Below, in pieces: positions 8,452 through 15,620 of a stretch of DNA of 64,000 bases (position 1 is the first letter of the stretch; each line of letters starts with the position of its first letter). Made by a program: the position numbers and the translations under genes. Location of the stretch: the NCBI GenBank assembly GCA_009991965.1, contig JAACWQ010000004.1, forward strand, positions 42,074-106,073, in the 5' to 3' direction. The notes beneath the pieces are model-generated. The model worked only from the letters and a program-made list of their open reading frames with translations. It had not been told where the DNA came from and did no database searches. This stretch comes from Minisyncoccota bacterium. Its GTDB lineage: Bacteria; Patescibacteriota; Microgenomatia; UBA1400; PJMF01.

Positions 8452-9303
8452 TCACAAATCTAAATGACTCAGCAACTCAATTGCTCTTTTTTGCTCACTA
8501 GAAAGTTTGGATGGCACCGCAACAATCAATCGTACGTAGAGGTCACCTTTGCCCGAATGTTGTAAATGTGGCACACCTTCTCCGCGCAAACGAACCAATG
8601 TATGAGACTGCGTGCCTGCACGAACCTTTAGCTTCAGCTTGCTATCCACTGTTGCTACTTCGGTCGTCCCTCCGAGACTGGCCAAGCTAAATGTAATCGG
8701 CTGATCAACAAATAAGTCAGCGTTGTCTCGTTTGTAGCGAGGATGTGTGCCGACATTGATAGTAACGTCGAAGTTATCAAAGCGAATACGGGTACCATCG
8801 TTGGCTCCAGCTGGCACTTTAATTTTATGCTTTTTGCCATCAATTTGGACTTCTTTGGTAACACCTCGAATCGCTTCCAGAAACTCCACACGCATGGAGT
8901 ATCGAGGTCGCTGAGCTGCGCGCGAAAATCCGCCACCAAAAAATTGTTCGAAAATTTCAAACGGATCACCGAAATCTGCATTTTCAAACGGCGAAGCGCC
9001 GGTTGAGTAAGAATATGAAAAAGGACCCTGCTGTGAACCACCCGCAAATGGATTGCCACCCATACCACTGGCTGGGTCAAACGCCGCGTGACCAAATTGA
9101 TCGTACTTTTGTTTTTTTTGTGTATCGGAAAGAACTTGATACGCCTCGTTAATTTCTTTAAATTTTTCTTCAGCCTCAGCTTTCTTGGATTGATTTTTGT
9201 CTGGGTGCCACTTGAGTGCCATTTTGCGGTAGGCGGCCTTGATCTCACTGGCCGAAGCAGTTTTGGTCAACCCAAGAATTTCGTAAAAATCGCGTTTAGT
9301 ACT
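8452..9303 (-). CDS. J-domain co-chaperone, DnaJ class B/CbpA-like (no zinc-finger domain)
   Basis: J domain with HPD (DFYEILGL...KWHPDKN), G/F-rich linker, C-terminal DnaJ CTD; the CxxCxGxG repeats are absent. Confidence 0.8.
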
Positions 9304-9369
9304 CATAAGAACAAGCCTGCATTGTAACAAAAATTGCTCTAGCTGTTAAGCAGACAAAACTAGTGACTG

Positions 9370-11643
9370 CTAAGGTTTTGATCGATGTACAAAGAGGCCA
9401 ATCACAACTACCAATAACGTGAGACTTGAAATTCCCAAACCATAGTAAAACATCCGCGGCTCATACCACATCTGCACCCTATTCGTGCCCTGCTCAACTG
9501 GCAGCAAGCGCATGCCGTTGTGATTACTTATTTTCACCGAGTGGCCATTAACCGTCGCTCGCCAATCTTTGTCGTAGCGGTCAGCGATGATCATTTTGCT
9601 GGTCTCACTTGCGGTGGCTACAAAGCGTATTTGATTCGGTGTTTCAAGTAAATCCTTGACGTACACAAATCCTGTCTCTGCTGTACGAAATCTTGGCTGA
9701 GCTGGCAATTGATAGAGCATAAGATTTTCAGTTTCTGCCACTATCTGCTCTGGCATCATCGCCCCATAGAGCGGAAACCAAGTGTCGCGAACATAGTAAC
9801 CAACAGACCATTCGGATAATGCTTCGTTTATCACCGCAATTTCTGGCAAATTGTTAATGCTCGTTTCAGCAGAATTTGCCGCACCAAACCGCTCCTGCAC
9901 GTCGAGTGGCAATAACGTGGTGTACCCATTAATGACAGGGACACCGAAGACCATATTCCAATCTGGTGTTGCGCCCGAACGCATGCGTTGCAGATGTGAA
10001 TAGTTGTTCGATTCTTCCGCATCAATATATGAATCAGAAAACGGCTGACGCACTGCGAGCGCATCCCAGTACGCACCAAAATCTGTGTACGGCGTGTTGT
10101 AGTTACGTGTCAATACTCGATATTGAGTCAAGTCCTGTGCTTGCATGAGCGAAGTGATTTCGTTATGCGTGGAATCTATTGAGTAGATCTCTCTCGGAGC
10201 AAAGAAAAATAAATGAGCAGTGTTGAAAATAAGATCAAATGCAATACAAATCAGCAAAAGTTTATATTTTTTTTGCAGCCAAAAAAACAGAGACGCTACC
10301 AACACCGCACTTGTAATAATAAATGACCTTAGTATGTTTGAAAGCAGTAAAAAATCTCTTGCAAGTGTATGAAACGGGCTGAGAGATAATCTGCCAGAAA
10401 GTATTTGGTCTGCCTTGTGCCAAATTGGTGAAAATCCTGATTGCATCACAAGCCAACCAATGCCGGAAAGCACAGCGAGCACTGACACCGACCAAAGCAC
10501 ATACCGCCAGCGGAGTGATTTTTTTGGTTTACATTGATCAAAACTCCAACCGATCAACAGTGCACCCGAAAACGCGGTTAACTGTAAGATTCCACTTGCA
10601 CCTCTCGAAGCACCAAGCAGCGGAATTTTGCTCAAGAACGAAAACCATGGCAATGCATCGCCAAATGCAAACAGCAGCGAAGCAACAGCCACCATCCAAA
10701 GCGTACGGATAAAAAGCGGAGCTCTCCTGAGATTCCGTAAACTAAAACCAAGCAAGAGCAGTCCAAACCAACCAAAGTACACTACAATATTTGGCTGAGC
10801 ATTCCATAGCAAACCCCATTTTATGCCTATAATTGGGTTATAGAAAAACGTTGGGAGTATCACATGTATTAGTTCACCAATTGAGAGCGACCCTGCTGCC
10901 GCTTGGTCAAGCGACTGTACAACTCGCGTAGAATTCGCCAGTGTCGGTAAAAAGGGCAACCAAACGATTGCACTCGCACCAACAGCAATAATGCCCGCTA
11001 GCAACCAAGTTCGAATAAACTTTGTCTCCCACCGCCACGACAGACTGAGAATGAAACTAAACGTCACGGCGTACAAAACATACTGTGGGTATCCTCCGAG
11101 TAATTGCAGTGCAACCAATAAACCAAGAAATATTGCAGAACGAATAGTATGGCGCTTTGCAACCCCAGCCCAGACTATCCATGGCAAAAAACTCAATGAT
11201 TGCAGCGTTGCAATATTATTAATTGAACCGGCAATTTGTGGCGAACACGACCACAAGATAGCAACAAGGTAGGAAGCAGTTTTGGAAAAAGCCAATCTTC
11301 GAGCCAAAAAGTACGCACCTGCAAAAGTAAGCAACACCTGTGCCAAAACTGTCATATTAAGCGCAGTTGCAGGTGAAAACACAAGAAATAATAATGTTGA
11401 TGGATACAGCATTGATTGGTTGATATCACCAATCCAACTAATACCAGCAAATAGCAACGGGTTCCAGAGTGGCAAGATACCTTGACGCAACCAAGTGATA
11501 GTAAATAGCTTTCCCGGTACCATCAACGAGAAGTTGTCGCCAAAAAAAATTGTCTTGTCGAAAAAAAACTGCCAAAAACGTGTAGACGCGAGAAAAAGGC
11601 CAGCGAGCCAAACGTGCAAAATTTGTTTGGAATTCGCCTGCAT
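9370..11643 (-). CDS. YfhO-family polytopic membrane protein (putative glycosyl-carrier lipid flippase/glycosyltransferase partner)
   Basis: 757 aa, many predicted TM helices and a large C-terminal extracytoplasmic domain; tightly coupled to an upstream GT2 gene, as in csbB-yfhO pairs. Confidence 0.5.
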   Translation of the reverse strand: MQANSKQILHVWLAGLFLASTRFWQFFFDKTIFFGDNFSLMVPGKLFTITWLRQGILPLWNPLLFAGISWIGDINQSMLYPSTLLFLVFSPATALNMTVLAQVLLTFAGAYFLARRLAFSKTASYLVAILWSCSPQIAGSINNIATLQSLSFLPWIVWAGVAKRHTIRSAIFLGLLVALQLLGGYPQYVLYAVTFSFILSLSWRWETKFIRTWLLAGIIAVGASAIVWLPFLPTLANSTRVVQSLDQAAAGSLSIGELIHVILPTFFYNPIIGIKWGLLWNAQPNIVVYFGWFGLLLLGFSLRNLRRAPLFIRTLWMVAVASLLFAFGDALPWFSFLSKIPLLGASRGASGILQLTAFSGALLIGWSFDQCKPKKSLRWRYVLWSVSVLAVLSGIGWLVMQSGFSPIWHKADQILSGRLSLSPFHTLARDFLLLSNILRSFIITSAVLVASLFFWLQKKYKLLLICIAFDLIFNTAHLFFFAPREIYSIDSTHNEITSLMQAQDLTQYRVLTRNYNTPYTDFGAYWDALAVRQPFSDSYIDAEESNNYSHLQRMRSGATPDWNMVFGVPVINGYTTLLPLDVQERFGAANSAETSINNLPEIAVINEALSEWSVGYYVRDTWFPLYGAMMPEQIVAETENLMLYQLPAQPRFRTAETGFVYVKDLLETPNQIRFVATASETSKMIIADRYDKDWRATVNGHSVKISNHNGMRLLPVEQGTNRVQMWYEPRMFYYGLGISSLTLLVVVIGLFVHRSKP

Positions 11644-11645
11644 GA

Positions 11646-14846: not shown

Positions 14847-14852
14847 ATGTGG

Positions 14853-15575
14853 TTACTCAACTATATCCTGAATCAGGGTACGCATATACTTCATCATCGG
14901 AATTATGTACGGGTAGTCAAATCGACTCGAGCCAATAACCGCTAATTCGCACTGCACCTCACCAACTTTAAACGACGTGTGAATCACTCCAAGAGACACA
15001 AGGTTTCGGTTGCCCAGTTCTGGACCATAAACGACTTGAATAATATTGTCGCTCGTATTGGTCGCAAAAATTTCACTCAAAAGCGAAACTTCTTCGATCA
15101 ACTGCAAAACAGTACGCATGACTTTGATGTCATAAAACTCAGGCATCTGCAGTAAGTTGGCATAACCGGAGTGATAGAGCTTATGCTTATCAAGCATCGC
15201 GAGACCAAGGGCGTGCGATTTATCTGCCAGAACTCGAGTAATCTGTGAAAAAACTTCATCGATTTCCTTGCGGGAGTCCCAGACTTTTTCCTTGGCTGCA
15301 ACTTCATCGGCCACGGTCAATTCTTTCTCACGCATCAATTCATTGACGTATAACTTAAGCGCAACTGGAGTCGGGATACGACCAGCGCTCGAGTGACCTT
15401 TTTTTAGATACCCTTGTTTGGTGAGTTGCACCATTTCATTGCGAATGGTGGCAGGCGAAACGCCAATCGAAAACTTTCGATCAATCGTGTCTGAACCAAC
15501 TGGTTCGGCCGTCTCAATAAAATCTTGAATCACGGCGCGCAAAATTTGGATTTGTCTGGCTGTGAGGTCAATCAT
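14853..15575 (-). CDS. hrcA: heat-inducible transcription repressor HrcA (short form)
   Basis: N-terminal wHTH (LTARQIQILRAVIQDFIETAEPVGSDTI); first gene of the hrcA-grpE-dnaK operon; CIRCE-like site upstream. Confidence 0.85.
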   Translation of the reverse strand: MIDLTARQIQILRAVIQDFIETAEPVGSDTIDRKFSIGVSPATIRNEMVQLTKQGYLKKGHSSAGRIPTPVALKLYVNELMREKELTVADEVAAKEKVWDSRKEIDEVFSQITRVLADKSHALGLAMLDKHKLYHSGYANLLQMPEFYDIKVMRTVLQLIEEVSLLSEIFATNTSDNIIQVVYGPELGNRNLVSLGVIHTSFKVGEVQCELAVIGSSRFDYPYIIPMMKYMRTLIQDIVE

Positions 15576-15593
15576 ACGTATATATTTTCGTGC

Positions 15594-15620
15594 TTAGCAG
15601 AAGACTTGAGTTACTGCTAA
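15594..15620 (-). promoter_or_regulatory. CIRCE-like HrcA operator (TTAGCAGAA-N9-TACTGCTAA)
   Basis: 9-N9-9 inverted repeat with TTAGCA...TGCTAA arms, 19-45 bp upstream of the hrcA start. Confidence 0.6.

Follow-up and report, generated by a model that had tools for sequence, protein, structure and literature searches.

Is a putative glycosylation gene pair that lies between dnaK and dnaJ part of a single heat-shock operon, or does it form a transcription unit of its own among the chaperone genes? The question arises from a locus in the 64-kb stretch of DNA analysed here (the window), which a first-pass annotation had read as one CIRCE-controlled operon coupling envelope glycosylation to the heat-shock response, an interpretation that is partly supported by the present analysis. 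An ORF check within the window located all six named reading frames on the minus strand where they had been placed, except that the dnaJ ATG occupies 9306-9304 and not 9303, and profile scores upheld the family assignments (Table 1). The tight junctions were likewise confirmed, with TAATG common to the dnaK stop and the first GT2 ATG, and 2 nt separating GT2 from the YfhO-type gene. Comparisons were made with 50 related Patescibacteria (Microgenomates) loci from species-level genomes, denominators varying by gene.

Table 1. Features of the chaperone and glycosylation locus, with positions in the window.
Feature	Position	Strand	Details
hrcA promoter	15620..15648	-	TTGACA-17-TATTAT; 11/12 matches
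CIRCE variant 1	15594..15620	-	TTAGCAGTA-N9-TTCTGCTAA; upstream of hrcA
hrcA	14853..15575	-	240 aa, short form; Pfam HrcA E = 3.7e-17
grpE	14388..14846	-	152 aa; Pfam GrpE 85.9 bits
CIRCE variant 2	14358..14384	-	TTGGCAGTC-N9-GACTGCTAA; in grpE-dnaK spacer
dnaK promoter	14373-14345	-	TTTACA-17-TATTCT with TG
dnaK	12350..14299	-	649 aa; HSP70 823 bits; NF001413 942 bits, over cut-off
Candidate -10 box of GT2's own leaderless-type promoter	12342..12347	-	TATGAT
GT2	11646..12350	-	234 aa from first ATG; Glycos_transf_2 124 bits
YfhO-type GT-C glycosyltransferase	9370..11643	-	757 aa
CIRCE variant 3	9347..9373	-	TTAGCAGTC-N9-GTCTGCTTA; in front of dnaJ
dnaJ promoter	9321..9349	-	TTAACA-17-TACAAT with TG; 10/12 matches
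Class B dnaJ	8452..9306	-	284 aa; J domain with HPD, G/F-rich linker, DnaJ_C
First convincing intrinsic terminator downstream of dnaK	7957..7975	-	GGACTCG-loop-CGAGTCC then TTTTT
CIRCE variant 4	46467..46493	-	upstream of groES-groEL, outside the coordinates of the locus

The HrcA C-terminal domain scores 63.5 bits in Pfam against a cut-off of 22.2, indicating that the repressor gene is present; the score against TIGR00331 (181 bits, cut-off 197) falls just short because the protein has only 240 residues. DnaJ matches Pfam DnaJ (99 bits) and DnaJ_C (108 bits), with HPD at residue 33. The window protein contains neither a cysteine nor a CxxCxGxG motif, and the CxxCxGxG zinc finger is found in none of 37 orthologues, so the class B part of its earlier CbpA/class B-like description stands. 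The CbpA part fails, with 113.6 bits against the PRK10266 cut-off of 403, and class B DnaJ is the better description. Residues 2-277 align to positions 2-282 of the 291 in NCBIfam PRK14299 (161 bits, cut-off 392). Its position in the dnaK locus and its CIRCE control make it probable that this J protein serves DnaK as its housekeeping partner, rather than as an accessory of the CbpA kind.

Comparison of 40 orthologues favours the second ATG (12335, 14 nt past the dnaK stop) as the GT2 start, which yields 229 residues and the N-terminus MK..KLSVLVPIYNE. The closest solved relatives are P. furiosus DPMS 5mlz (6e-18), ArnC and GtrB 5ekp, with the alignments to DPMS and ArnC stopping at the catalytic and interface region. 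AglJ and dolichyl-P-hexose transferase are the best NCBIfam matches, both under cut-off (AglJ 131 against 325 bits), and all NCBIfam equivalog scores are far too low. The 234-aa protein shows no hydrophobic segment or TM helix. GT2 would thus be a GT-A polyprenyl-phosphate sugar synthase of the DPM1/GacI/AglJ type without a membrane helix; its earlier description as CsbB-like holds for the GT-A fold and the polyprenyl-phosphate glycosyltransferase kinship, and fails for the C-terminal membrane helices of CsbB and GtrB.

The 757-aa partner exceeds the gathering score of Pfam YfhO (PF09586; 33.8 against 28.5 bits), sustaining that assignment, albeit through residues 667-739 only, corresponding to model positions 761-835 of 835. 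The match recurs in 23/33 homologues, in every case confined to the C-terminal end; the N-terminal core has diverged strongly, and a sequence profile of the protein found no match among solved structures. The predicted topology comprises about 12 TM helices in residues 1-480 (helices through 478), an extracytoplasmic non-membrane domain with a beta-sandwich at 481-729, and a final TM helix at 730-752, in keeping with a YfhO protein of many helices and a large external domain before the last one; B. subtilis YfhO has about 13 TM helices, the last two of them separated by a large external loop (PMC5836110). An invariant D36-N37 lies in the first external loop, and the protein is classed as a polytopic membrane glycosyltransferase of the GT-C fold. 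No GtrA/GtcA-type or Wzx flippase appeared among the scanned multi-TM ORFs of the 64-kb window; the flippase gene may lie elsewhere in the genome, and gtcA of B. subtilis is located elsewhere in its genome.

The operators argue for several regulatory units. The CIRCE variant TTAGCAGTC-N9-GACTGCTAA occurs at four sites in the 64-kb window against 0.02 expected by chance, all preceding chaperone genes (hrcA, dnaK, dnaJ and groES), and the site before groES-groEL validates the consensus. The canonical Bacillota operon, hrcA-grpE-dnaK-dnaJ, carries the CIRCE TTAGCACTC-N9-GAGTGCTAA, a consensus found only once in the window, with 3 mismatches. Variant 1 begins at the last base of the hrcA promoter -10 box, variant 2 encloses the -35 of the dnaK promoter, and variant 3 overlaps the stop codon of YfhO as well as the dnaJ promoter -35. 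Among the relatives, CIRCE lies within 150 nt upstream of hrcA in 32/33 loci, dnaK in 24/34 (often with TTGACA within the spacer) and dnaJ in 34/37, and within that distance of GT2, YfhO and nusA in 0/43, 0/47 and 0/35. The HrcA/CIRCE chaperone locus and its hrcA site are therefore confirmed, but variants 2 and 3 had been missed, and the claim of a single CIRCE-controlled operon gives way to hrcA, dnaK and dnaJ each with its own promoter and CIRCE.

At the dnaK-GT2 junction of the window no terminator was found, and the RNA structure is not unusual (z = -0.66). In the related loci, a strong intrinsic terminator directly follows dnaK in 21/36, including 12/13 with a gap of 69-311 nt; elsewhere terminators follow GT2 in 1/44, YfhO in 3/38 and dnaJ in 18/36. 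The terminator is absent, and the junction tight or overlapping, in the window and in relatives L001, L006, L007 and L043, and a neighbour-joining tree of DnaK groups the terminator-less loci in a single nested clade. On this sequence evidence, a terminator after dnaK is ancestral and still present in most loci, its loss being derived, recent and confined to the window's subclade; the terminators of the relatives could be leaky attenuators.

Retained at the window junction is the candidate -10 box TATGAT, preceded by the dnaK stop (12352-12350) and followed by the second GT2 ATG, and the junction TAATGTATGATAGGCGTATGAAA that contains it is identical (100%) in the window, L001 and L006. Under promoter and terminator rules that come from model bacteria and are extrapolated to the candidate phyla radiation, a -10 box of GT2's own occurs in 33/41 loci against a background of 8.7%, and one ending 6-9 nt before the GT2 ATG in 28/41 against 2.5-5%. 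The first-pass annotation had itself named a promoter or terminator signal at this junction as grounds against its operon, and the retained box is such a signal. The window copy may drive little or no transcription, since no -35 can be recognised and its TG is shifted by one base from the expected register. No usable -10 box is left in L007 and L043, where GT2 must depend on dnaK read-through, suggesting that obligate co-transcription of GT2 with dnaK exists in part of the clade.

The observed gene identities, folds, operators, terminators, -10 boxes and phylogenetic distribution point, with moderate probability, to a mosaic of separate transcription units and not one heat-shock operon, with read-through arising from terminator loss. 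The hrcA-grpE, dnaK and dnaJ units would be driven by their own sigma-70-type promoters, each overlapped by a lineage-specific CIRCE for HrcA. Seated between dnaK and dnaJ would be a two-gene extracytoplasmic glycosylation module, in which the GT-A enzyme is predicted to couple a sugar to polyprenyl phosphate on the cytoplasmic side of the membrane and the YfhO-type GT-C to pass the polyprenyl-linked sugar to an acceptor outside the membrane, with the flippase presumably encoded elsewhere. The ancestral module would have been insulated from dnaK by the intrinsic terminator and driven by its own -10 leaderless-type promoter, reading through into dnaJ. In the window's subclade the terminator appears to have been lost, so that the dnaK stop now abuts the retained -10 box, which makes read-through plausible; module expression in the window would probably combine basal transcription from its own promoter with HrcA-dependent dnaK read-through, a recent, lineage-specific heat-shock input. 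Since the module has no CIRCE of its own, any heat-shock control here could act only via the lost terminator, and read-through, where it occurs, would be a derived condition, not a conserved mode of regulation. We infer the module's transcription, enzymatic activities, sugar and acceptor from sequence. Co-regulation of glycosylation with heat shock, as earlier proposed, gains from the missing dnaK-GT2 terminator here and loses from the lack of a GT2 or YfhO CIRCE and from the terminator in most relatives.

A single HrcA/CIRCE operon, hrcA-grpE-dnaK-GT2-yfhO-dnaJ, with envelope glycosylation deliberately co-induced with the chaperones on heat shock, is unlikely in view of the three separate CIRCE/promoter units, with dnaJ needing its own, the lack of CIRCE before GT2 or YfhO in any locus, the majority and ancestral terminator after dnaK and the conserved -10 box of GT2. 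It is consistent with the tight or overlapping terminator-less junctions of the window and four relatives, with the lack of a plausible GT2 promoter in L007 and L043, and with B. subtilis csbB-yfhO being driven by the stress sigma factors sigma-B and sigma-X (PMC5836110). The synteny check also lends it support: of 50 related species-level genomes, about 35 keep the order dnaK-GT2-YfhO-dnaJ, even where YfhO identity has dropped to 34-45%, and this could reflect selection for a functional link. Against it, orthologous GT2-YfhO pairs lie distant from dnaK in L029, L036 and L040; distant YfhO homologues never adjoin dnaK.

Gene order has also a rather improbable explanation, namely that a single insertion brought the module into an ancestral dnaK-dnaJ operon, where it persists because these small genomes rarely rearrange, dnaK read-through being negligible or irrelevant. 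A block of about 16 kb (ftsH, exonuclease, GT4, GH39, hrcA ... nusA, infB) is collinear across the clade, so the linkage is a property of the whole block and not of GT2-YfhO and the chaperones in particular. Insertions recur in the dnaK-GT2 and YfhO-dnaJ intervals, hot spots that hold up to 5.4 kb of unrelated cargo (pilin-like (type IV), methyltransferase, Ig-like and unknown genes), and dnaJ retains its own CIRCE. Nothing in the window, however, halts RNA polymerase from the dnaK promoter to position 7975, in the terminator 3' of a SET-domain gene, making some co-transcription hard to avoid, and the exact junction conservation in three genomes suggests constraint.

Scarcely tenable is a quality-control coupling in which the GT-C O-glycosylates secreted or surface proteins (pilins, S-layer) and DnaK/DnaJ share the handling of non-native exported proteins, since, despite the type IV pilin-like and Ig-like genes inserted beside the module in some relatives and the absence of a YfhO-dnaJ terminator in 35/38 loci, the acceptor cannot be read from the fold, enzymes with glycan or lipid acceptors (AftD and ArnT) reach scores just as good, and the C-terminal beta-sandwich looks like a glycoside hydrolase accessory domain, hinting at glycan binding. 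PMT-type O-mannosylation, linked to protein folding control in the eukaryotic ER, is a loose parallel. It is highly improbable that the pair is a protein O-glycosylation machine for exported proteins such as pilins or other surface proteins; were it one, the linkage to dnaK/dnaJ in 35 genomes, the read-through into dnaJ almost throughout and, in one subclade, the joining to the dnaK transcript would represent a real coupling of cytoplasmic chaperoning with extracytoplasmic glycosylation under proteotoxic stress.

The locus bears on two subjects that are almost entirely uncharted for the candidate phyla radiation, the biology of the cell envelope and the regulation of genes. The CIRCE consensus specific to this clade, represented by three operators at a single locus, enables HrcA regulon prediction in Microgenomates, and the conserved GT-A/GT-C module suggests that these ultra-small bacteria decorate an extracytoplasmic acceptor via a lipid-linked sugar. 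Loci with the terminator present, the terminator lost, or the own promoter lost offer a natural experiment in how an unrelated module is absorbed into a stress operon, and a caution that tight spacing in one genome overstates operon membership when relatives carry separate signals.

The nearest described counterpart, CsbB-YfhO(-GtcA) of B. subtilis and S. aureus, glycosylates lipoteichoic acid with GlcNAc (PMC5836110, PMC8035078). Shared features are the adjacent, co-oriented GT-A and GT-C genes, a GT-C over the Pfam YfhO threshold with YfhO topology and beta-sandwich, and a presumed polyprenyl-phosphate sugar intermediate. Here, by contrast, the 234-aa GT-A lacks C-terminal TM helices, the YfhO model is matched over its last ~75 positions only, the scanned multi-TM ORFs of the 64-kb window include no GtrA/GtcA flippase, and the host is a candidate-phyla-radiation bacterium, with regulation not by sigma-B or sigma-X. 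The window, which covers little of the genome, shows no LtaS or Tag genes, and lipoteichoic acid as acceptor would be pure analogy. A cytoplasmic GT-A cooperating with a separate membrane protein has been reviewed (PMC8035078), and the catalytic GT-A domain without its own membrane anchor resembles S. pyogenes GacI/GacJ/GacK/GacL and the DPM1-type synthases (P. furiosus DPMS 5mlz, haloarchaeal AglJ), which are the best sequence matches of GT2. The locus differs from these in having no GacJ/DPM3-like partner or Wzx flippase and in a partner GT-C of YfhO type, not PMT_2 type.

The Bacillota dnaK operon is matched in chaperone gene order, an encoded HrcA, a CIRCE-preceded groESL and a 9-N9-9 inverted repeat overlapping promoters. 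The locus departs from it in an operator with G and not C at arm position 7, in three operator/promoter units against one, and in a 240-aa HrcA, a class B DnaJ and an intercalated two-gene glycosylation module. DnaJ, although under the PRK14299 and PRK10266 cut-offs, resembles the zinc-finger-less DnaJ of Deinococcus-Thermus and CbpA in its J domain with HPD, G/F-rich linker and DnaJ_C without a Cys-rich domain.

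All six minus-strand ORFs that the first-pass annotation assigned to the dnaK locus are present where it placed them, and Pfam and NCBIfam profile scores confirm their families (Table). The junctions are as tight as it described, with the dnaK stop and the first GT2 ATG overlapping as TAATG and 2 nt between GT2 and the YfhO-like gene. The dnaJ gene needs a small correction, its ATG lying at 9306 and not at 9303. The N-terminus common to GT2 orthologues, MKLSV(I/L)VP(V/I)YNE, places the likely true GT2 start at the second ATG, 12335. The J-protein belongs to the class B DnaJ proteins, as its missing zinc finger had suggested, and the finger is absent in 37/37 orthologues, making its absence a clade trait; Thermus is already known to have a DnaJ without zinc finger. 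The proposed CbpA-like identity is ruled out by a CbpA score of 113.6 bits, far under the 403-bit cut-off. HrcA has only 240 aa against the 338 positions of the TIGR00331 model, matching in two stretches with a score just below the cut-off; its usual central part seems to be absent here, and the HrcA proteins of relatives are of the same size. IF2 is only 491 aa long; the extended N-terminal part usual in bacterial IF2 is missing. In the closest relatives, L001 and L006, the dnaJ-nusA spacer measures only 117 nt, and the SET-domain gene at this position is therefore a recent insertion in the window; SET domains are uncommon among bacteria.

Table. Features of the dnaK locus, of the rest of the window and of related loci
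Feature	Position	Strand	Remarks
hrcA	14853-15575	-	Pfam HrcA, 63.5 bits
grpE		-	85.9 bits
dnaK		-	HSP70, 823 bits; NF001413, 942 bits
GT2, 234 aa	11646-12350	-	Glycos_transf_2, 124 bits
YfhO-like polytopic membrane protein, 757 aa	9370-11643	-	Pfam YfhO, 33.8 bits vs gathering score 28.5, last ~73 residues only
dnaJ (J-protein)		-	J domain and DnaJ_C, HPD, G/F-rich linker, zero cysteines
SET-domain gene, 120 aa	8034-8396	-	between dnaJ and nusA; Pfam SET, 39 bits
infB (IF2)	5172-6647	-	directly after nusA
CIRCE-like repeat 1	15594-15620	-	starts at final -10 base of promoter TTGACA-17-TATTAT
CIRCE copy 2	14358-14384	-	grpE-dnaK spacer; surrounds -35 of a TTTACA-17-TATTCT promoter
CIRCE copy 3	9347-9373	-	shares bases with YfhO stop codon and with -35 of TTAACA-17-TACAAT, a promoter 15 nt upstream of dnaJ ATG
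CIRCE copy 4	46467-46493	-	upstream of groES-groEL; TTGACG -35
groES	46124-46432	-
groEL	44479-46104	-
First good terminator	7975-7957	-	after SET-domain gene, downstream of dnaJ
GH39-like glycoside hydrolase	15675-17087	+	N-terminal TM/signal segment
GT4 glycosyltransferase	17075-18217	-
Low-GC region with integrase	22457-40000		GC 0.37-0.40 vs ~0.45 elsewhere
Tyrosine integrase	22457-23323		precedes the low-GC stretch
Subtilase	29642-30985
Schlafen/AlbA_2 ATPase	31209-32660
Reverse transcriptase	35657-36622
903-aa ORF	50753-53464	-	no Pfam match
1032-aa class II (B12-dependent) ribonucleotide reductase-like gene	53510-56608	-
Interval insertions in relatives	L003 7769-8326; L029 9399-9947; L009 3656-5656; L046 5299-6996

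The single CIRCE-controlled operon proposed for these genes does not hold. The CIRCE-like repeat before hrcA is real, but two further copies lie inside the locus, and hrcA, dnaK and dnaJ each have their own promoter and CIRCE. The chaperone genes are thus organised as three HrcA/CIRCE units with operators of their own, and the GT-A/GT-C module (GT2 plus the YfhO-like gene) lies between them without CIRCE. The window has four matches to the lineage consensus, TTAGCAGTC-N9-GACTGCTAA, where 0.02 would be expected, and a single match, with 3 mismatches, to the canonical CIRCE, TTAGCACTC-N9-GAGTGCTAA. The copy upstream of groES-groEL confirms the lineage-specific form. The same distribution recurs in 50 species-level loci from a genome scan of related Patescibacteria (Microgenomates; L001-L050). 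A CIRCE, here a pair of outer hexamers with 10 or more of 12 positions matching within 150 nt upstream, precedes hrcA in 32/33 loci, dnaK in 24/34 and dnaJ in 34/37, and is found before none of the GT2 (0/43), YfhO (0/47), nusA (0/35) or grpE (0/34) genes.

Terminators, taken as a T-run behind a GC-rich hairpin, occur after dnaK in 21/36 loci (12/13 where the dnaK-GT2 gap is 69-311 nt), after GT2 in 1/44, after YfhO in 3/38 and after dnaJ in 18/36; L013, L016 and L032 are examples of terminator-bearing relatives. In the window, no convincing minus-strand terminator was found from the dnaK promoter to 7975; the YfhO ORF holds weak hairpins only, and overall there are as many hairpins as expected from shuffled sequence. 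Folding of the dnaK-GT2 junction RNA is no better than that of shuffles (z = -0.66), and neither a hidden terminator nor a structured RNA was found there. No Rfam family was matched in the locus, two tRNAs elsewhere being the only matches in the window. The terminator-less loci (the window, L001, L006, L007, L043, L004 and L005) form one clade among terminator-bearing lineages in a DnaK NJ tree, and the loss is therefore derived: an ancestral terminator after dnaK disappeared in the window's subclade. Their dnaK-GT2 junctions are tight, except in L005, which has a 2.1-kb insert.

The absence of a terminator agrees with the proposed linkage of dnaK and GT2, but a candidate promoter signal does separate them. 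A -10 box (TATGAT, TATACT or TAAAAT, often with TGn) precedes GT2 in 33/41 loci, compared with 8.7% of all ATGs, and at 6-9 nt in 28/41, compared with a 2.5% background; such a pattern marks a leaderless-type promoter. It also precedes hrcA, dnaJ and the exonuclease gene and is absent before grpE, dnaK, nusA and infB. The window junction reads TAA-TG-TATGAT-aggcgt-ATG, and its 23 nt are identical in L001 and L006, the adjoining dnaK tail having diverged. First genes of units in L001-L050 often have a -10 box that ends 5-12 nt upstream of the start (background 3%), namely the exonuclease gene in 15/18, dnaJ in 17/37, hrcA in 12/33 and GT2 in 19/43, and the sequences suggest that leaderless or near-leaderless mRNAs may be widespread in the clade.

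The module has its own -10 box, and no terminator lies between YfhO and dnaJ. The reading we favour, and hold to be somewhat probable, combines mosaic units with read-through: the module would be transcribed from its own promoter, reading on into dnaJ, and in the window genome heat-shock-derepressed dnaK transcription would additionally read through into GT2-YfhO. Designed co-regulation of the pair with heat shock, the earlier view, draws on the fused junction of the window, and in light of the -10 box and of the CIRCE-free module we consider it unlikely. A purely positional accident with zero regulatory consequence appears slightly less likely again, and that chaperones and (protein) glycosylation are truly linked in function is very improbable. 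Orthologous pairs do occur apart from dnaK (L029, L036, L040), and dnaK linkage was never found among distant YfhO homologues from other phyla. L007 and L043 have lost a usable -10 box before GT2, and their GT2-YfhO is therefore probably wholly dependent on dnaK transcription. The order hrcA-grpE-dnaK-GT2-YfhO-dnaJ-nusA-infB recurs in ~35/50 loci, usually preceded by ftsH, the 5'-3' exonuclease gene, GT4 and GH39, but the whole 16-kb block is collinear, so that its conservation is not specific evidence for a functional link of the pair with the chaperones. Identity in relatives is 73-93% for DnaK and 34-68% for YfhO.

Among solved structures, GT2 is closest to P. furiosus dolichyl-phosphate mannose synthase, ArnC and GtrB; in NCBIfam it scores best, under cut-off in both cases, with AglJ and a dolichyl-phosphate hexose transferase. 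By homology, these matches point to a polyprenyl-phosphate sugar synthase. No hydrophobic segments were found in its 234 aa, and without TM helices the suggested CsbB-like architecture is ruled out. CsbB and GtrB are membrane-anchored GT-A enzymes, whereas GT2 matches the variant with a cytoplasmic GT-A plus a separate membrane protein (PMC8035078), being GacI/DPM1-like.

The protein search gave as closest match a partial sequence (P0001; 100% identity over 78% of the query) encoded in a Candidatus Pacebacteria MAG, and all strong homologues come from Patescibacteria, Pacebacteria or Woesebacteria, which places the window in a Microgenomates-type bacterium of the candidate phyla radiation. An AlphaFold model built from an alignment of 33 homologues (mean pLDDT 87.4, pTM 0.90) predicts ~12 membrane helices to residue 478, a non-membrane domain at 481-729 ending in a beta-sandwich, and a final membrane helix at 730-752. 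This topology is that described for B. subtilis YfhO, which has 13 helices and a large external loop preceding the last (PMC5836110). Foldseek against the PDB ranks AftD and ArnT at the top (E 8e-7 to 3e-4); the family profile, run by sequence against solved structures, gave zero matches. D36-N37 in the first external loop is invariant in the family and sits where GT-C enzymes place their catalytic acidic residue (PMC5836110, PMC8035078). The predicted GT-C fold, the topology and this motif together rule out an unrelated transporter, and the YfhO assignment stands, with the Pfam threshold passed. In ten homologues, as in the window protein, the Pfam model matches with its C-terminal end only, and sequence-based YfhO membership is thin. 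Foldseek likens the modelled beta-sandwich to accessory domains of glycoside hydrolases, a weak fit to the suggestion that large GT-C enzymes carry carbohydrate-binding domains (PMC8035078).

The pair resembles the CsbB/YfhO and GacI/GacL systems. It has the GT-A, the GT-C fold, the YfhO topology and an above-threshold Pfam score; it departs from CsbB/YfhO in the missing membrane anchor, and no GtrA-type flippase was found among the small membrane ORFs of the 64-kb window. By analogy with these multi-component transmembrane glycosylation systems, the GT-A would load a sugar onto polyprenyl phosphate in the cytoplasm, an unlinked flippase would carry the lipid-linked sugar across the membrane, and the GT-C would transfer the sugar to an acceptor outside. 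In most relatives the GH39-like and GT4 genes that flank hrcA are collinear with the chaperone genes too, placing more envelope-carbohydrate genes in the same conserved block.

The components are all of known kinds; new are their arrangement, the variant operator, present three times in the one locus, and the documented change by which an insulated module became fused to dnaK. Literature searches found nothing on YfhO-type genes linked to dnaK loci, no description of CIRCE/HrcA in Patescibacteria, and nothing relevant on YfhO in the candidate phyla radiation or GT-C in Microgenomates. The locus is mainly of use as a starting point for envelope glycosylation in candidate phyla radiation bacteria, and as a warning against operon inference from spacing in a single genome.

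The dnaK-GT2, GT2-YfhO and YfhO-dnaJ intervals of relatives hold varied insertions, encoding type IV pilin-like, Ig-like and dTDP-sugar-epimerase-like proteins, a SAM methyltransferase recurring between GT2 and YfhO and, in some relatives, a conserved 660-700 aa protein without a Pfam match. Elsewhere in the window, the low-GC region behind the tyrosine integrase, with its subtilase, Schlafen/AlbA_2 ATPase and reverse transcriptase, probably constitutes a genomic island carrying genes of defence type; no DGR-type direct repeat of at least 40 nt was found near the reverse transcriptase (35.6 kb). The 903-aa ORF adjoins the ribonucleotide reductase-like gene. Many third-party MAG records of the dnaK locus (L002, L004, L008-L010 and others) are titled 'uncultured Pseudomonadales bacterium', and one 'Limisphaerales', titles that are evidently wrong for a Patescibacteria-type locus.
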